Below are positions 136 to 42,101 of a stretch of 42,773 nt of DNA, one piece after another. A program made the translations under genes and the position numbers. The notes beneath the pieces are model-generated. The model saw only the letters and a program-made list of their open reading frames with translations. It was not told the origin of the DNA and made no database searches. The stretch is from a virus. Every line of letters begins with the position of its first letter. The stretch's first letter is position 1. The DNA is taken from UHGV virus genome UHGV-0008253; one strand, written 5' to 3'.

Positions 136-150
136 TTACCTTAAAGGTAT
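136..150. promoter_or_regulatory. operator-like palindrome TTACCttaaaGGTAt (1 mismatch) upstream of int
   Basis: matches the TTACC-N5-GGTAA motif found at 12 other intergenic sites; flanked by inverted repeat gacggtat/ataccgtc. Confidence 0.4.
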
Positions 151-1451: not shown

Positions 1452-2111
1452 CTATCCTTCCTGGACTTTGGTAAGCGTCAGATTTCCGCAGAACACTGCG
1501 CCGGTGTCGATGTACATCTGGTTTGCATACACTAGTGGGTGATGTGCTGGCGTATGACCGAAGATGAACAAATCGGCACCGGTTATCTCCGAGACAATAC
1601 CGTCCTGCGCGTCGCTAACCCGCTCACGATTCCATATCACCATTTCTTCCGGTACTGGCTTATCGAATGCGTATTCGTTGTGGGGGTAGTCTGCGTGGCA
1701 GATGACGACCTTCTTATTGCCGGTAACCAGTTCGATAATCATCGGGAGGTTGGTAACCTTTGGCAGAAGGTATTTGAGTTGCACATCCTGCTCAGAATCA
1801 AGTTGGCGCCACCATCCACCGCCGTTTGACATCCAATGTCCGAAACTTCCGCCGTTGACCAGTGCATCCAGCATCATCTGCTCATGGTTGCCACGAACAG
1901 CTCGGAACCACGGCATAGTAATCAAATCCAGGCATTCGACGTTTTCAGCGCCGCGGTCAACAAGGTCACCAACGGAAATAAGCAAATCGCGCGCCGGGTC
2001 GAATGAAACTTTGTCGAGTTCGTTCATCAGCAGCGTGTAGCACCCATGCAGATCGCCGACGACGAAGATATTGCACCAGTCAGCGCCATTGATGCGTTGA
2101 TATAGGTTCAT
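1452..2111 (-). CDS. Ser/Thr protein phosphatase, lambda PPase / PrpA-PrpB family (metallophosphoesterase)
   Basis: from internal Met [24 protein letters not shown]...[14 protein letters not shown]...RGNHE; near-collinear with lambda phosphatase from memory; start overlaps stop of upstream gene (ATGA). Confidence 0.85.
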
Positions 2112-2758
2112 GCTGAACGCTCCCGCCCCTGGTTGTCTGTTGGTGACAGCGGAGCATTGCTGAATGCATTTGTTAATCTGGCAATATCCAACGCGTATCC
2201 AGGGTGTAGTTGCACTGCCGGGTCTTCGCACTGATTACCCCAAACATCGAAACCATGAGACGACTGGCGGGCGAACAGTTCAATGCGAGAAACATCGCCT
2301 AACAATTGCACAAGTTTTTCACGAACGACATCTGGCTTTCTTGAATGCTCAAGCCGCGGTGCGGTAAATGACTGAACGATCCCTGCATTAATGCGCGTAG
2401 GTAGTTTTCCCTTTACCGCAAACAGGCAATCTTCACTATTGGCGCGAGTCATGTGTCCCATACCCATAACCAGTTTATCTGGTTGTCGACTACCACATTT
2501 TATCCACGTGAAGCCCTTCATCGTCATCAGACGGAATCCCCAGGCTTCAACAACTTTTAGTGCTTCGAGTGGTTGTGTTGGCACCCACCACATGGCCAAC
2601 AGACAGTTTTCATCGGCCAAATCCCACACAGGAAGGCGGCAGATATCCAGCACACTCATAACCGGATATTTAAAACCGGCACCGCGATTACCATCTGCGG
2701 CTTTGTCCCGGTATACCCAGGGTGGATCTGCATAGATTAGTGTGTATTTCTTAGTCAT
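2108..2758 (-). CDS. MT-A70 family DNA N6-adenine methyltransferase (orphan)
   Basis: DPPW motif in [12 protein letters not shown] near N-terminus; likely ATG start at 2758 (MTKKY) with GGGGTGG SD, track start is upstream GTG at 2770. Confidence 0.8.
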
Positions 2759-5627: not shown

Positions 5628-5642
5628 TTACCGTTGAGGTAA
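5628..5642. promoter_or_regulatory. operator palindrome TTACCgttgaGGTAA at PL-like promoter
   Basis: perfect TTACC-N5-GGTAA; directly downstream of candidate -10 (5643-5648) and -35 TTGACA (5665-5670) on minus strand. Confidence 0.6.
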
Positions 5643-5689
5643 TAATTATGCGTATATGGTTTGATGTCAATAGATATGAGTTAAAAAAA

Positions 5690-5714: not shown

Positions 5715-5739
5715 AATAAAAAAGCCGCCATAAGGCGGC
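5715..5739 (-). terminator. rho-independent terminator after repressor gene
   Basis: hairpin gccgcc-ataa-ggcggc followed by U-run on minus strand, 23 bp after repressor stop. Confidence 0.7.
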
Positions 5740-5761
5740 TTACTTACTGAAAAATATGGTT

Positions 5762-6346
5762 TTATTGTTTGTTTTTTTCGTTCTGGTTGATGACAAATTC
5801 AATGTAACTTTCGATCTTTGCTTTCTCGGTTTCGGGTAACAATGCGTAGCGCGAGCGATCATAGTTGATGGTCGCAGGGTCGTGCGGGTGAATCAGTAAT
5901 TCATAGCCGTGACGCCCGAATGCGGATGCAACATTCTCCAGGGTGGAAATGGAAACGCTGACCTCATTGTTTAACAGGCGGCTGATTGTCACCTGGGCGA
6001 CGCCGGATGCGCGGTGTAGTTTTCCCTGCGTTGAAAGGTCGCGGCTTTCGCTCATCCAGCGTTCCAGGTTGTGAGCCGCCAACTGACCAATGTCGCTAGG
6101 GCCGACAGGCTGAAAACCTTCCTGAGAAAGCGAGCGATCGATATCAAGCCAGTTACGGGGTTTATTGGCGGCAGCTTCAATTTTTCGCGCAACCTGGTCG
6201 CCGATAACCTTCTTGCCAAGAGCCCAGCGGTTTACCAGATTTGCCTGAGTTCCAAGTTTTTCAGCCATCCGCGTCTGAACACCATTGAATTCACGGTCGA
6301 TCAAGTCGTTGAGATTTTGCCTGCGGACGTCCTGGATACTTTTCAT
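5762..6346 (-). CDS. phage repressor, tandem HTH (XRE-type) DNA-binding protein without recognisable S24 autocleavage domain
   Basis: two HTH-like segments (QTRMAEKLGTQANLVNRWALG and ASGVAQVTISRLLNNE); divergent from cro-like gene with operators between. Confidence 0.7.
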   Translation of the reverse strand: MKSIQDVRRQNLNDLIDREFNGVQTRMAEKLGTQANLVNRWALGKKVIGDQVARKIEAAANKPRNWLDIDRSLSQEGFQPVGPSDIGQLAAHNLERWMSESRDLSTQGKLHRASGVAQVTISRLLNNEVSVSISTLENVASAFGRHGYELLIHPHDPATINYDRSRYALLPETEKAKIESYIEFVINQNEKNKQ

Positions 6347-6401: not shown

Positions 6402-6416
6402 TTACCCAACAGGTAA
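6402..6416. promoter_or_regulatory. operator palindrome TTACCcaacaGGTAA in repressor/cro intergenic region
   Basis: perfect TTACC-N5-GGTAA. Confidence 0.65.
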
Positions 6417-6433: not shown

Positions 6434-6449
6434 CTATCCTTGATTTTTG

Positions 6450-6464
6450 TTACCTTATGGGTGA
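6450..6464. promoter_or_regulatory. operator TTACCttatgGGTGA overlapping PR-like promoter
   Basis: 1 mismatch; overlaps -35 TTGTTA (6447-6452), 17-bp spacer, -10 TATTAT (6470-6475) reading toward cro-like gene. Confidence 0.6.
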
Positions 6465-6500
6465 ATATTTATTATCTGAAATAAATATCAGGCAATAGCT

Positions 6501-6731
6501 ATGAGCGATAACGGACATTTCGATTTCAAAAAGCACTGGCTTGCACTTACTCCGGATGAGCGTGAAGCCTTCGCACAGGAAGCCGGAACGACGAGTCACT
6601 ATATCCAGACTCACTTAACAGGTAAGCGCAAAATGCCAGGTAAGGTATTGATGAATGGGCTTTTTAAAGCCTGTAAAACAAGACAATGGCTGCGCTCAAA
6701 AGCAGAATTGGCATACTTCTTCTACTCATGA
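6501..6731 (+). CDS. Cro/CII-like small DNA-binding regulator (first rightward early gene)
   Basis: 76-aa protein divergent from repressor; TSHYIQTHLTGKRK region resembles small phage HTH regulators. Confidence 0.55.
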   Translation: MSDNGHFDFKKHWLALTPDEREAFAQEAGTTSHYIQTHLTGKRKMPGKVLMNGLFKACKTRQWLRSKAELAYFFYS

Positions 6732-8732: not shown

Positions 8733-8747
8733 TTACCTTAGAGGTAA
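8733..8747. promoter_or_regulatory. operator palindrome TTACCttagaGGTAA
   Basis: perfect TTACC-N5-GGTAA in P/next-gene intergenic region. Confidence 0.6.
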
Positions 8748-8794: not shown

Positions 8795-8809
8795 TTACCT
8801 AAGGGGTAA
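8795..8809. promoter_or_regulatory. operator palindrome TTACCtaaggGGTAA overlapping RBS of 8813 gene
   Basis: perfect TTACC-N5-GGTAA ending 4 nt before the ATG. Confidence 0.6.
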
Positions 8810-12943: not shown

Positions 12944-12986
12944 GCATGGTACTATTACCACAACGGTAACTATTACCACGGTGGTT

Positions 12987-13583
12987 ATGATGCCTGCTGA
13001 ACCTAAAGCCTATAAACGCAAATCAACGCAATTTAAGCCACTAACAGCAATGCAGGAGGCTTATTGCCAGTCATACATCAAAACGCCTGAAAACCAGACT
13101 CAGGCAGCGATTAACGCAGGATTCTCCCCAAATACAGCGGCAGTTAAAGCCAGTGTCATGATGCGCGATGAACGCATTCAAAAACGGATTGCCGAGTTGA
13201 TGGAGGAGCGCAACAAACGAATGCGCGTCAGTGCTGATTACGTTCTCATGCGCTTGGTGGAGATCGACCAGATGGACGTGATCGACATCCTCAACGACGA
13301 TGGTAGCCTTAAGCCAATCCGAGAGTGGCCGAAAATCTGGCGCACTACGCTTAGCGGCTTTGATCTGTCATCGACCATCATGAACATGAACGAGGATTCG
13401 ATAGAGACAATCCTCAAAAAAATTAAATGGCCTGACAAGGTGAAGAACCTCGAACTGATTGGTAAGCACGTCGACGTCAACGCATTCAAAGAACGCCTGG
13501 ATGTTAATGTGAATGTGACAATTGCTGATCGCATAGCGGCAGCCAGGAAGAGACTGAAAGAACGTCAGGATGGCAATCAGTGA
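12987..13583 (+). CDS. terminase small subunit
   Basis: position upstream of and overlapping terL; start at ATG 12987 (MMPAEPK) after terminator. Confidence 0.65.
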   Translation: MMPAEPKAYKRKSTQFKPLTAMQEAYCQSYIKTPENQTQAAINAGFSPNTAAVKASVMMRDERIQKRIAELMEERNKRMRVSADYVLMRLVEIDQMDVIDILNDDGSLKPIREWPKIWRTTLSGFDLSSTIMNMNEDSIETILKKIKWPDKVKNLELIGKHVDVNAFKERLDVNVNVTIADRIAAARKRLKERQDGNQ

Positions 13584-15720: not shown

Positions 15721-15797
15721 TGGCGTGGCATGCAGGATTCGAACCTGCGACCAACCGCTTAGAAGGCGGTTGCTCTGTCCGACTGAGCTAATGCCAC
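15721..15797 (-). tRNA. tRNA-Arg (anticodon UCU)
   Basis: cloverleaf read directly: acceptor GTGGCAT/ATGCCAC, D-stem GCTC/GAGC, anticodon stem ACCGC/GCGGT with loop CUUCUAA, T-arm GCAGG-TTCGAAT-CCTGC, discriminator G, CCA. Confidence 0.85.
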
Positions 15798-16119: not shown

Positions 16120-16134
16120 TTACCTGAAAGGTAA
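16120..16134. promoter_or_regulatory. operator palindrome TTACCtgaaaGGTAA upstream of head gene block
   Basis: perfect TTACC-N5-GGTAA. Confidence 0.6.
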
Positions 16135-32961: not shown

Positions 32962-32990
32962 AAAAAAGCCCGCAGCGCGGGCTATTCTTT
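32962..32990. terminator. bidirectional rho-independent terminator
   Basis: hairpin gcccgc-agc-gcgggc flanked by A6 upstream and tattctttttt downstream; overlaps stop of 288-aa gene. Confidence 0.7.
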
Positions 32991-33848
32991 TTTGCTATTT
33001 CTTTGATATATATTTCTTCCATTTTTGGTAACACGAATAACGTGCCCCCTGGATTCTACTTTGTTATTTGTTGCTTTATATACTTCAAAATCAAACCATG
33101 ATATATAACTTATTTCGTCAATAGACACCATGATCTCAAGTCCTAGCACTTTCTTTCTGCTAATTCCTCTTATTGCTGCAGTCCGCTTGACCTGTATTTC
33201 TCCTGGATAAGCATTAGTGAATGTGACAGATAAGTTTTCTTTGTTCCTGTATCCTGACATTAAAGGAACAAAAGATATGTGCTGATGCGGACCCTGATTT
33301 TCCGTTGGTTCACCAGAACCATTTATTATTCCAACATACACTTTGTTTGATGATAAAGTAATCAACATTGGTCGTTTAGGATCCGATTCAATAGCATCAA
33401 GCAATAGTAAGTCTAAAGAACCTTGCGAGTAAGTTTTTCGCAGTACTCTGGCCTTCATTGCCTCTGTTTTTTGCTCGTAAATATCACGTTTATAAAAACA
33501 ACCAAGAAGAAAATCTTTCACCCACACAACAGACACATAACACAAAGAGAAGCAAATGGATGTGGCTGAGAGAAGAAGCAGCCACATGTAAATTCTATCT
33601 GTTTCTGGTTTTGATGTTACATTAAAAGTTTCCACCATATCGTGAACTAGGTGAAAATCAGGCCATTTATATTTTATAGCGGCTGCAATTATTACTGATG
33701 CAACAAGGCAATATGTACCTAATGCAGCTACTTTCATATAAAGAAGCTGGCCTTCATGTCGGTATAAACGGAAATAATGATACTGGTTAGCGGTTATCAT
33801 AATATAACCACTAACCAGAATGGGGATAATTAGAAGAGCTAACAACAC
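32982..33848 (-). CDS. membrane-anchored protein of unknown function (3 N-terminal TM helices + about 170-aa soluble domain), low-GC moron
   Basis: hydrophobic segments at residues about 1-20, 39-58, 88-110; markedly AT-rich codon usage versus neighbours; coupled to upstream 69-aa gene. Confidence 0.6.
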   Translation of the reverse strand: MLLALLIIPILVSGYIMITANQYHYFRLYRHEGQLLYMKVAALGTYCLVASVIIAAAIKYKWPDFHLVHDMVETFNVTSKPETDRIYMWLLLLSATSICFSLCYVSVVWVKDFLLGCFYKRDIYEQKTEAMKARVLRKTYSQGSLDLLLLDAIESDPKRPMLITLSSNKVYVGIINGSGEPTENQGPHQHISFVPLMSGYRNKENLSVTFTNAYPGEIQVKRTAAIRGISRKKVLGLEIMVSIDEISYISWFDFEVYKATNNKVESRGHVIRVTKNGRNIYQRNSKKE

Positions 33849-34057
33849 TATTTCCTTACAGTGGCAAGATCCTGTTTAACAATTGCAGCAGCGAGACGAC
33901 GCATCTCCTTAACCTCAGGAAGCTCAGAAATTTGCTGTGATGAGATATATACTCCACCACGCTTGTTAACCTGCGCTGACGCCGGAACTTCTGCATTTTT
34001 TGCCTGAGGGCTGGGTGCATTATCCCTCGTTTTTGTACGAGCGAACCAAAATCCCAT
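33848..34057 (-). CDS. small protein of unknown function, first gene of two-gene cassette
   Basis: ATG at 34057 preceded by strong SD GAGGAGGAG; stop overlaps start of 288-aa gene. Confidence 0.55.
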   Translation of the reverse strand: MGFWFARTKTRDNAPSPQAKNAEVPASAQVNKRGGVYISSQQISELPEVKEMRRLAAAIVKQDLATVRK

Positions 34058-34083: not shown

Positions 34084-34098
34084 TTACCTTTAAGGTAA
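34084..34098. promoter_or_regulatory. operator palindrome TTACCtttaaGGTAA at promoter of 69-aa/288-aa cassette
   Basis: perfect TTACC-N5-GGTAA 27 bp upstream of start codon. Confidence 0.6.
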
Positions 34099-34164: not shown

Positions 34165-34815
34165 TCAGAAGAACCCTGCCTTGTCGTTGATGTACTCCGC
34201 GTGGGTCTGGATATCACGCAGGCATTTGCTCACACCGACGATGTAGCAGAACATGGTGGTCAGCTCCGCCGCCGCGCCCGATACGTCGTGCCCGTCGTCC
34301 TGTAACTGGTTCAGCAGATTCATCAGCAGTGAGTTCTCCGTCAGGCCGAGAACACCAGACGGCGAATGAATCAGGCTACGGTAGCCGGGCTTCAGTGGGG
34401 CACTGTATTCTTTTTTGTCTTCCAGCTTGATCGCCTCCATAATGGCGGGCATGAAGCCTGACAAGACCTTCTCCACTTTTGTTTCTTGTTGTCTTAAACG
34501 TTTCTCGCATTCAATGAAGTAGCGTCGTACCTGACGACCTTTTTCGTTACGCTCGACCATCGCCAGCTCTTTGGCTGTATCGAGGGTGAGGTGGTAGTCT
34601 TTTGCAGGACGGCCTCTGCCTATTTTTTCCCGAACTTGGGAAATAATCATAAAGTCTTGATTTTCAACGAAACCATATTCAGAAATTCGTTCGACAATCC
34701 ACGAAGCAAATCGCTTACCCACATCGAGGAAAGTGTGTAAATCACGGGCATTAACGAGAAGAGCGGTTTCGTTGGATATAGTGCCGTTGAATACGGGGAT
34801 GAGTTGAGCGTTCAT
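34165..34815 (-). CDS. antirepressor (AntA/Bro-N-like N-terminal domain + C-terminal domain shared with 85-aa protein)
   Basis: N-terminus LIPVFNGTISNETALLVNARDLHTFLDVGKRFASWIVE resembles AntA-type antirepressors; C-terminus about 40 percent identical to 35133-35390 product. Confidence 0.65.
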   Translation of the reverse strand: MNAQLIPVFNGTISNETALLVNARDLHTFLDVGKRFASWIVERISEYGFVENQDFMIISQVREKIGRGRPAKDYHLTLDTAKELAMVERNEKGRQVRRYFIECEKRLRQQETKVEKVLSGFMPAIMEAIKLEDKKEYSAPLKPGYRSLIHSPSGVLGLTENSLLMNLLNQLQDDGHDVSGAAAELTTMFCYIVGVSKCLRDIQTHAEYINDKAGFF

Positions 34816-34973
34816 TATGGCGTCTCCACTTAGCGAATTACATCACCACCGCTGAGACCAATCAGATGGTGGTGAACTGAACGGAGTTGGTCTTACCGGC
34901 CTAAGTGGTACCGGCGTCCTTTCGGACCCCCATTCAGCCCACCATAATTCTGGCATGACTGTGCTATACGCAT

Positions 34974-35095
34974 AAAAAAACCACGTCTGGCGTGGTATGC
35001 GCCACTTAGTAATCCGGGAGACCAATCCCGGCACTGGATTTTGCCAGTGCCCGATTACTATGGCACAAGAGGAGTGCGATGTAAATTTACCTCAA
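34974..35095 (-). ncRNA. candidate small RNA / structured ant leader ending in intrinsic terminator
   Basis: candidate promoter -35 TTGAAA (35124-35129), -10 TTATAT (35102-35107), operator over +1; three stem-loops (ggcactgg/ccagtgcc, ccggga/tcccgg, ccacg/cgtgg) then U7. Confidence 0.4.
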
Positions 35096-35132: not shown

Positions 35133-35390
35133 TTATCTGGTTTGTTTTCGTAATTGTTCGGCACAATAGTCGAGATGTGTTTGCAGATCCTGCATAGACA
35201 TCTGTGAGCTGGTGACGTAGTTAATCAGTGCAGTCAGTTCGGCAAGTGGGCCATCGACATTAAATCCATCCTTATCGAGATCCCGGAGTAATTTCATCAA
35301 GTGCGATCCCTCCACCAGTGACCTGACGCCTCCCGGCGTGTGAATCCTTTCGGTAAATCCGTCTTCCAGTGGATAGTGATACTGCTGCAT
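35133..35390 (-). CDS. small antirepressor-like protein (stand-alone homolog of Ant C-terminal domain), LexA-box controlled
   Basis: 85 aa from ATG 35390 with GGAGAAG SD; IHTPGGV...LMKLL...DG..V.G.LAELT...DLQTH aligns to Ant C-terminus; LexA box 19 nt upstream. Confidence 0.6.
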   Translation of the reverse strand: MQQYHYPLEDGFTERIHTPGGVRSLVEGSHLMKLLRDLDKDGFNVDGPLAELTALINYVTSSQMSMQDLQTHLDYCAEQLRKQTR

Positions 35391-35409: not shown

Positions 35410-35429
35410 AACTGTATATTTATACAGTA
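35410..35429. promoter_or_regulatory. LexA box (SOS operator) AACTGTATATTTATACAGTA
   Basis: CTGT-N8-ACAG with AT-rich spacer, 18/20 match to consensus TACTGTATATATATACAGTA. Confidence 0.75.
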
Positions 35430-41027: not shown

Positions 41028-41567
41028 TTAATTAAACCAGCTGTCCGATTTGTTCTCTTCTGCTTTGCCCACGCTTTTCATCAGATCTCGACCGCCCTCA
41101 GTCATATTCCTGTTTGCGTCAGCTTCAGATTGCACCACATCGGTTTGCGCAGCTTTGTGCTTCAGTTCCTGATCGATAAATTCGTTTTCTCGCTTAACGC
41201 GGGCTTCTTCTTTCGCCAGCGCCAGTTTTTGTTTCTGAATCTCTAAGCTGCGTAGCTCATCTTCATAACTTTGATCGCGTTTTTTGTCCGCAGAGGCTTC
41301 GGCGTCCAGTTTATCCTGACGAGCTTTCTTATTTGCCGCTGCCGTTGCCGCTCTTTTGTTAGCGGCGGCCTGGGCGTTTGCGCGACGTTGCTTCTCTTGC
41401 TGGATTTCCCTGTTGCGCTCCGCGACCCATTCGTCATGCTGCCTTTGCTCTTCATTTTTACCTTGCTGTTCCGCTTCTGCGACAGCAGAGAGTTGATCCT
41501 GCAATGATGAGGCGATAGCCGGATAGCTTAAGGAGGCTAAGATGGCGCAAAGAAAAACTTTCTTCAT
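41028..41567 (-). CDS. host-flank secreted coiled-coil protein (Ala/Lys/Gln/Glu-rich) with signal peptide
   Basis: N-terminal MKKVFLCAILASLSYPAIA signal peptide; outside prophage repeats. Confidence 0.6.
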   Translation of the reverse strand: MKKVFLCAILASLSYPAIASSLQDQLSAVAEAEQQGKNEEQRQHDEWVAERNREIQQEKQRRANAQAAANKRAATAAANKKARQDKLDAEASADKKRDQSYEDELRSLEIQKQKLALAKEEARVKRENEFIDQELKHKAAQTDVVQSEADANRNMTEGGRDLMKSVGKAEENKSDSWFN

Positions 41568-41582
41568 GACTCCTCCTGATCA

Positions 41583-42101
41583 TTAGCTCTTTTCAGGACA
41601 TTTGGTATTTGGCTGAATACGCGTTTCGTTATACGTCGTGGTAATAACAACGGCTAAACCTGTCGTAAACTGGCACTCTTTACCCACCTGGGTAGAGGTA
41701 TACACTTTGGTGCCTTCCTTATAGGTTAAAGAAACACCTTCCACTAAGGTTTTATCATTCACCATAGAACCCGCTGCCGCGCCTACAGCTCCGCCGCCAA
41801 CTGCACCTGCCGTCGTTCCGGAATTGCTGCCAGACCCGACGTTGTGGCCGATAACACCGCCAGCGACTGCGCCAATAAGCGCGCCGAAGGCTTGTGCGTT
41901 TCGTTTATTTTGGGAGTTGTCTACGGCAACTTTTGCGGGAAGAATGGAAATAATATTAACGGTTTTAGTTTCTTGTTTGGTATTCAGTTGATCGGTTTGA
42001 TAAACATCGGCGGCATGATCATCAGCATTTGACTGGCATCCTGCCAGAGTGAATGACGCTAACATTGCCACAGGCAGAAGACATTTTTTAAATTTCATCA
42101 C
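41583..42101 (-). CDS. host-flank lipoprotein with glycine-zipper segment (SlyB/PcpB-like architecture)
   Basis: lipobox LAGC after signal peptide; GALIGAVAGGVIG glycine zipper. Confidence 0.6.
   Translation of the reverse strand: MMKFKKCLLPVAMLASFTLAGCQSNADDHAADVYQTDQLNTKQETKTVNIISILPAKVAVDNSQNKRNAQAFGALIGAVAGGVIGHNVGSGSNSGTTAGAVGGGAVGAAAGSMVNDKTLVEGVSLTYKEGTKVYTSTQVGKECQFTTGLAVVITTTYNETRIQPNTKCPEKS

Follow-up and report, generated by a model that had tools for sequence, protein, structure and literature searches.

A prophage repressor of the SPC32H type, lacking a recognizable autocleavage domain, in a phiV10-like Escherichia coli prophage

The closest described counterpart of rep, the prophage repressor gene that we analyze here in the virus genome UHGV-0008253, is found in the Rep/Ant switch of the Salmonella phage SPC32H (PDB: 5D50, 5D4Z; Kim and Ryu 2013; Kim et al. 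2016). As described in PMC9638917, SPC32H Rep binds palindromic DNA as a tetramer; a tetramer of the antirepressor Ant binds two Rep dimers and thereby breaks the Rep tetramer. PMC9986798 divides the protein into three: a DNA-binding domain at the N-terminus, a dimerization domain in the middle, and a module at the C-terminus that both tetramerizes and binds Ant. The same paper groups SPC32H Rep with Rco of the Bacillus plasmid pLS20, as both have a partner antirepressor, an N-terminal helix-turn-helix (HTH) and, at the C-terminus, a tetramerization fold of strand plus helix. In PMC7380047, which cites Kim and Ryu 2013, antirepressors under LexA control appear as a common induction route in Salmonella prophages. 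Tum of coliphage 186 and the antirepressors of Gifsy and Fels-2 follow the same logic, i.e. a non-cleavable repressor combined with a LexA-repressed antirepressor gene (PMC7380047), but these proteins are unrelated to the small Ant discussed here.

The window, which is the whole stretch of 42,773 nucleotides that was analyzed, is a phiV10-like E. coli prophage (genus Uetakevirus, epsilon15-type), and SPC32H belongs to the same genus. The two phages share the gene order: rep and a cro-like gene diverge, and ant is located beside the tailspike gene. They also share a LexA box before ant at the matching place and TTACC-N5-GGTAA palindromes at syntenic sites. We consider it highly probable that the switch of the window operates as in SPC32H, with a non-cleavable, palindrome-bound repressor that is removed by LexA-controlled Ant. 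At the level of DNA, the rep region is 98–99% identical to phiV10, PAS61, ZX5 and others. Not a single residue of the protein differs from phiV10 gp40 or from ORF21 of vB_EcoP_ZX5 (100% identity); the phiV10 record describes gp40 as a putative repressor with 'two helix-turn-helix motifs' that is similar to the epsilon15 repressor. Overexpression of ZX5 ORF21 abolished free phage and decreased endolysin and holin mRNA by 99.97–99.99% (PMC9782041). Hence, repression of lytic genes has been reported for a protein identical to Rep and may, on that identity, be ascribed to Rep as well. In the ZX5 work, ORF21 was linked neither with SPC32H Rep nor with LexA or the small Ant (PMC9782041). At a minimum of 95% identity, rep is present in 537 out of 5,426 complete E. 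coli genomes (about 10%), where the copies are labelled only as 'helix-turn-helix' protein.

The similarity between Rep and SPC32H Rep extends over the full length of the protein. With phmmer, residues 1–190 align to residues 2–197 of 5D50_A (E=4e-42); tblastn yields 41.8% identity over 98% of the query, and the C-terminal half of Rep also matches 5D4Z. The whole protein matches Pfam HTH_3 in two stretches (E=1.2e-9, 38.5 bits; the gathering score is 23 bits), and by this score Rep is a member of the XRE/Cro-C1 HTH family. When residues 81–153 are scanned alone, HTH_3 reaches 27.0 bits (E=4.5e-6) and HTH_26 25.8 bits; residues 1–80 alone give HTH matches below the threshold only (YdaS-type, E=4.4e-4; HTH_3, E=0.013, 16 bits), and the last 41 residues have no Pfam match up to E<=10. 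The AlphaFold2 model of Rep, a single chain built on 30 homologues, is entirely helical: a four-helix bundle (residues 4–59) is followed by a disordered linker (60–84), a five-helix bundle (85–151), a low-confidence stretch (157–166) and finally a long helix (172–191). No beta-rich domain is present in this model. In a Foldseek search against the PDB, SPC32H Rep (5D50/5D4Z) ranks first, and the next matches are the XRE-family HTH proteins NHTF, SinR, Stl, DdrO and HigA. The two XRE-like HTH segments, which a sequence-only reading of the window had pointed out, are thus recovered both as HTH_3 stretches and as helical bundles of the model.

Many lambdoid repressors self-cleave, and rep, like cI, is flanked by divergent early promoters. 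On this general precedent, one might suppose that Rep is a lambda CI/LexA-type repressor whose RecA-stimulated autocleavage domain has diverged beyond easy recognition. However, Peptidase_S24 (Pfam: PF00717) was not found in Rep up to E<=10, nor in any of 86 database homologues, all of which are about 194 amino acids long and come from Enterobacterales. The Ala-Gly or Cys-Gly dipeptide of an autocleavage site occurs nowhere in Rep. Both hallmarks of the LexA/CI type, an S24 domain with its Ser/Lys dyad and a cleavage dipeptide in the linker, are therefore missing. No S24 structure is among the Foldseek matches listed (top 50, including all with E<=0.001); instead, the all-helical model is most similar to SPC32H Rep and XRE HTH proteins. 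Since Rep is homologous to SPC32H Rep, a solved non-S24 structure, along all of its 194 residues, no space is left for an S24 domain of about 120 residues. SPC32H Rep itself is reported by Kim and Ryu (2013) to stay uncleaved during the SOS response. As far as sequence and predicted fold can show, a cryptic S24 domain is excluded, and we give almost no credence to autocleavage; without such a domain, RecA could not trigger self-cleavage of Rep. The domain and fold searches thereby bear out the earlier remarks that no S24 signature is visible and that the switch differs from that of lambda-type CI. In common with lambda CI, P22 C2 and LexA are the N-terminal Cro/C1-type HTH, the place between divergent early promoters and the multiple operators. 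In contrast to them, Rep has neither the S24 domain, nor the cleavage-site dipeptide, nor the beta-rich C-terminus, and by analogy with SPC32H it would be inactivated by sequestration instead of cleavage.

Inactivation by a partner metalloprotease, of the ImmR/ImmA or DdrO/IrrE type, would also do without an S24 domain. Pairs of an XRE repressor and a partner protease are common in mobile elements, and DdrO is among the weaker Foldseek HTH matches of Rep (E about 0.14–0.18). Yet the open reading frames (ORFs) that flank rep, those of the early operons and the window-specific ones gave no M78, COG2856 or ImmA-like Pfam match (some small ORFs were unscanned), and the phiV10 annotation contains no M78/ImmA-like protein. 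What is present instead of a protease is a cognate antirepressor with a LexA box, and we therefore regard a protease partner as very improbable.

The product of this antirepressor gene, ant, is 88% identical to SPC32H Ant (5D50 chain E) and 98% identical to phiV10 p24; across relatives, the identity ranges from 63 to 98%. No Pfam family covers the protein. ZX5 and most database records call it a 'hypothetical protein', and the family phrog_450, to which it belongs, is described as 'unknown function'. The LexA box upstream of ant overlaps the likeliest -10 hexamer of the gene (TATAAA) and is the sole AT-rich consensus LexA box of the window. In phiV10, ZX5, Tyrion and SPC32H, ant and the adjoining box are kept together. 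Klebsiella phage BUCT711 has kept ant, and the left half of its LexA box reads ATG instead of CTG (L004, 17010–17035). In the point mutant SPC32N, one substitution in this box reportedly makes Ant constitutive (Kim and Ryu 2013). The BUCT711 box recalls this mutant, and the isolate might therefore lysogenize poorly. Induction by an antirepressor had been suggested earlier from the LexA-box gene; the suggestion is supported, given that this gene encodes a homologue of SPC32H Ant and that Rep is a full-length homologue of SPC32H Rep. Judged by full-length homology, the three modules and a cognate Ant with LexA box, Rep is to be classified as an immunity repressor of the SPC32H type.

The boundaries of the Rep modules (Table 1) follow the alignment to SPC32H Rep, and their names and roles are taken over from the description of the latter in PMC9986798. 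The N-terminal domain is the best conserved part of Rep. Its MKSI start is invariant among 33 aligned homologues; N36, R40 and W41 of the recognition helix N36-L-V-N-R40-W41 are invariant, too. The domain carries a net charge of +5, while the other modules have -1 (middle) and -2. The DNA-binding domain is 53% identical to that of SPC32H Rep, the dimerization domain 32% and the C-terminal module 46%. The second HTH, for its part, could contact DNA beside or between palindromes and serve not only in dimerization. It is the stronger HTH_3 match when scanned alone; HTH-typical positions are kept in it (R123 is invariant, Q118 and T120 occur in at least 90% of the sequences), and the ZX5 authors assumed that the C-terminal HTH of ORF21 binds DNA (PMC9782041). 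Against this stand the description of the corresponding SPC32H Rep domain as a dimerization domain (PMC9986798), and the negative net charge. Furthermore, conservation is lowest in the second HTH among the folded modules, while throughout the genus the palindrome half-site does not vary. DNA binding by both HTHs is consequently unlikely in our view. The alignment suggests that the N-terminal HTH alone probably reads DNA; the earlier term 'tandem HTH' is true of the sequence, but misleading on function, because the second segment aligns with the SPC32H dimerization domain.

The palindrome in question is markedly over-represented. The core TACC-N5-GGTA, with its 5-bp spacer, occurs in 12 copies in the window; these are among 14 copies at spacers of 4–8 bp, where 1.1 are expected. 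The extended form TTACC-N5-GGTAA is represented by ten perfect sites and four sites with one mismatch, nearly all of them intergenic. They lie at the leftward and rightward early promoters (PL and PR) and in about eight further regions, often in pairs 17–18 bp or 62 bp apart. At the two best promoter matches of the window (10/12), the palindrome begins at the last base of the -10 hexamer. PL faces the early-left operon, which contains homologues of gp39 and gp38, an exonuclease and RecT. A pair like OL1/OL2, 62 bp apart, is also present in SPC32H, Tyrion and two further sequences (L008 and L010); in BUCT711, the two sites of the pair are 63 bp apart. The region between rep and the cro-like gene contains, in SPC32H and BUCT711, two perfect sites at a 17-bp spacing equal to that found here. 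In phiV10, SPC32H, Tyrion and BUCT711, TTACC-N5-GGTAA is the most enriched palindrome, and it is located at syntenic sites. The enrichment extends to the surroundings of Rep homologues in three further prophages, from Serratia, Raoultella and a metagenome contig (7–9 sites per 20 kb, about 0.3 expected). The central 5 bp of the immunity-region palindromes contain GC in the window but consist of A and T alone in SPC32H and BUCT711, a difference that could point to another immunity specificity.

TTACC-N5-GGTAA is probably the operator of Rep, and perhaps of Cro, too; an invariant half-site is what the invariant recognition helix of Rep would lead one to expect. With 76% identity to SPC32H_042, the cro-like protein lies well above the value for Rep (42%); it has no Pfam family. 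Because it is conserved between the two phages, it could read the same palindromes. Alternative interpretations of the palindrome as an RNA hairpin or as a promoter were rejected: the arms comprise only 5 bp and are AT-rich, and the spacing is unlike that of -35 and -10 elements. A text search of the literature found no publication of the palindrome as an operator; the epsilon15 genome paper may already describe it, and a similar inverted repeat may be mentioned there or in the phiV10 genome paper.

According to the SPC32H model, a Rep tetramer would bind the palindromes at the -10/+1 region of PL, at the -35 hexamer of PR and elsewhere in the prophage, and operator binding would keep the lytic genes silent. 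DNA damage would cause self-cleavage of host LexA, which would free the LexA box before ant and allow Ant to be made. Ant would then bind the C-terminal modules of the Rep dimers, break the tetramer and pull Rep off the DNA, without Rep being destroyed. Our own analysis shows which domains Rep contains and that S24 is not among them, that rep, ant and the LexA box are present and conserved, and how the palindrome is enriched and placed. From published work come the repressor activity of the identical ZX5 protein and the tetramer/Ant mechanism of SPC32H; that the pair of the window behaves as the SPC32H pair, and that the palindromes serve as Rep operators, we infer. Several points weigh against this model. 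Rep is only 42% identical to the protein from which the mechanism is known, and only 32% in the dimerization domain, and the C-terminal module is modelled as a monomer with low confidence (predicted local distance difference test, pLDDT, 43–69). An interaction of this Rep with this Ant is proposed by likeness to SPC32H, and the details of the SPC32H mechanism are taken from secondary descriptions. Given its 76% identity to its SPC32H counterpart, the cro-like protein might just as well be what recognizes the conserved palindrome. Finally, the ZX5 study, whose scope did not include the small Ant and LexA, gave the antirepressor role to a different, larger protein (PMC9782041).

The window contains a counterpart of this larger protein, too. 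Downstream of ant and on the same strand, a promoter is directly followed by a palindrome in the same geometry as at PL, then by an isrK-family RNA, a C4 antisense RNA and a second antirepressor gene. The encoded protein consists of an AntA N-terminal domain (amino acids 21–90, Pfam E=7.3e-28; phrog_377, 'anti-repressor Ant') and an Ant-like domain (amino acids 135–211), which shares 40% identity with the small Ant and reaches E=9.5e-14 against 5D50_E. In ZX5 ORF4 and Tyrion gp20, Bro-N is fused to the same Ant-like C-terminus; phiV10 p23 is truncated in the Ant-like domain. A protein search with the small Ant, limited by k-mers, retrieved mainly proteins of about 85 amino acids and a minority of longer or truncated ones; it did not reach the 40%-identical fusion proteins, and the only N-terminal domains seen fused are AntA-N and Bro-N. 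The isrK/C4 pair is present in phiV10, Tyrion and ZX5, but absent from SPC32H and BUCT711; compared with SPC32H, the cassette and the second antirepressor are found in the phage of the window only.

It could be argued that the larger protein is the main inducer and that the small LexA-controlled Ant is accessory or inactive. Overexpression of the orthologous large ZX5 protein, ORF4, decreased lysogeny, given as prophage titre, about 1000-fold (PMC9782041), and the match of the C-terminal domain to SPC32H Ant agrees with such a function. On the other hand, the large gene has no LexA box, SPC32H and BUCT711 do without it and without the isrK/C4 RNAs, the phiV10 version is truncated, and the small Ant is far better conserved; we thus regard a leading role of the larger protein as quite improbable. 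With the small Ant as primary inducer, a two-tier scheme can be drawn. The small Ant would strip Rep from the DNA, the Rep-operated promoter would open, and the isrK/C4 RNAs and the larger antirepressor would be produced, which would lock the lytic state by feed-forward; we propose this feed-forward role as a hypothesis. A switch that exceeds the SPC32H model in both respects, with Rep as a genome-wide silencer and induction by two tiers of Ant, is possible but rather doubtful. In such a switch, Rep would bind about 14 palindromes in about ten regions, including the integrase, PL, PR, a replication-side promoter, the late and head operons, the accessory genes and the ant/tailspike region. The spacing of 17–18 bp or 62 bp within site pairs would be compatible with short loops and with one tetramer that has two DNA-binding pairs.

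Two comparisons with more distant systems are informative. In immI of P1/P7 (c4 RNA, icd, ant) and in isrK-orf45-anrP of Gifsy-1, the antirepressor is likewise preceded by RNAs of the isrK/C4 families; translation of anrP, an antirepressor-like gene downstream of isrK, is under the control of IsrK in Gifsy-1 (PMC4825925). Unlike in these systems, the promoter of the cassette described here is overlapped by the phage palindrome, and the antirepressor has a C-terminal domain like that of SPC32H Ant. Rco of pLS20 combines a DNA-binding domain with a p53-like tetramerization domain and loops DNA. Rep has an extra middle dimerization domain in comparison, and by analogy the palindromes 62 bp apart would suit looping as well.

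Table 1. Positions of the features discussed in the text (numbering of the window unless another sequence is named).
Feature	Position	Strand	Details
Palindrome TTACCTTAAAGGTAT	136..150		1 mismatch; upstream of integrase gene
Candidate operator OL1, palindrome TTACCGTTGAGGTAA	5628..5642		begins at last T of PL -10 hexamer
PL-like leftward early promoter	5642..5670	-	TTGACA-17-AATTAT, 10/12 matches
Candidate operator OL2, palindrome TTACCCGTTAGGTAA	5690..5704		62 bp from OL1
Intrinsic terminator	5722..5741	-	directly after rep; 8-bp stem, 6 GC pairs, T run; terminator in phiV10 annotation
rep, prophage repressor gene	5762..6346	-	194 aa (amino acids), ATG start, stop codon in coordinates
Rep C-terminal strand-plus-helix tetramerization/Ant-docking module	aa 153-191 = nt 5774-5890	-	alignment to SPC32H Rep
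Rep middle HTH-like dimerization domain	aa 85-152 = nt 5891-6094	-	alignment to SPC32H Rep
Rep linker	aa 73-84	-	alignment to SPC32H Rep
Rep DNA-binding domain (XRE/Cro-type HTH)	aa 1-72 = nt 6131-6346	-	alignment to SPC32H Rep
Candidate operator, palindrome TTACCCAACAGGTAA	6402..6416		rep-cro intergenic region
Imperfect palindrome GCACCCCACAGGTAA	6419..6433		2 mismatches; 17 bp from 6402..6416 site
PR-like rightward early promoter	6447..6475	+	TTGTTA-17-TATTAT
Imperfect palindrome TTACCTTATGGGTGA	6450..6464		1 mismatch; overlaps PR -35 hexamer and spacer
cro-like gene	6501..6731	+	76 aa, divergent from rep; phrog_35 'transcriptional repressor', E=5.6e-13
Palindrome GTACCTCAAAGGTAA	6787..6801		1 mismatch; after terminator of cro-like gene
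Perfect palindrome pair, 62 bp apart	8733-8747 and 8795-8809		upstream of DUF1064 gene; second covers its ribosome-binding site
Adjacent palindromes (18-bp pair)	12955-12969 and 12973-12987		first perfect, second with 1 mismatch; start of terminase/late operon
tRNA gene	15724-15797	-	Rfam 73.3 bits; SPC32H annotates tRNA-Arg at this position
Perfect palindrome	16120..16134		upstream of portal/head operon
Two accessory genes	32982-34057	-	69 aa (phrog_5739); 288-aa predicted membrane protein (phrog_3630)
Perfect palindrome	34084..34098		upstream of 69-aa and 288-aa accessory genes
Second antirepressor gene	34165..34815	-	216 aa; directly downstream of isrK and C4
C4 antisense RNA family member	34865..34949	-	Rfam RF01695, 61.2 bits (gathering score 45)
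isrK-family small RNA and its terminator	34974..35050	-	Rfam RF01394, 67.7 bits (gathering score 50)
Palindrome TTACCTTTGAGGTAA on minus strand (TTACCTCAAAGGTAA on plus)	35101-35087	-	directly follows 35129-35101 promoter; geometry as at PL
Promoter	35129-35101	-	TTGAAA-17-TATATT, 10/12; just downstream of ant
ant, SPC32H-type antirepressor	35133..35390	-	85 aa; 5D50_E E=2.6e-46; phrog_450
LexA box TACTGTATAAATATACAGTT	35410..35429		18/20 consensus positions; 19 bp upstream of ant ATG
Palindrome TTACCTGAAAGGTAA	35467..35481		between ant and tailspike gene; invariant in six phages
Small Ant counterpart	L005 2089-2346		

Some further features of the window concern its boundaries and gene content. 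The published attP/attB core ATTGAGTGGGAATGATT (3' end of guaA) is not in the window on either strand; since the integrase gene starts at 193 and the attachment core is missing, the left junction is probably located just outside. The two accessory genes, which lie downstream of the antirepressor cassette, are not present in phiV10, and neither Pfam nor PADLOC matched them. A perfect 15-bp hairpin lies at 33783–33818, at the start of the 288-amino-acid ORF. The early-left operon contains a gene for a calcineurin-like metallophosphoesterase (1452–2231, minus strand) that adjoins an MT-A70 methyltransferase; phiV10 has a small DUF1382 gene there. Genes for a DUF5384 protein and a glycine-zipper/TraT-like lipoprotein occupy the right end (41028–42101). 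PADLOC models matched none of five genes, i.e. the two accessory genes, the phosphoesterase gene of the early-left operon and the two right-end genes.

Because the identical protein has already been annotated in phiV10 and tested in ZX5, and the logic of the switch was published for SPC32H, the reading of Rep as a non-cleavable HTH repressor is correct but ordinary; family, architecture and induction logic were known from SPC32H (2013–2016). The only parts that might be new are the operator network and the second antirepressor behind the isrK/C4 RNAs. The practical value lies in annotation: one tenth or so of the complete E. coli genomes carry rep under a generic label, and Ant is recorded as 'hypothetical'. 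Even the ZX5 paper on the identical protein missed the link to Ant and LexA and placed DNA binding in what is probably the wrong HTH. Modest extensions are the proposed operator network and the second antirepressor, which bear on the induction of O157-typing and other phiV10-like prophages.

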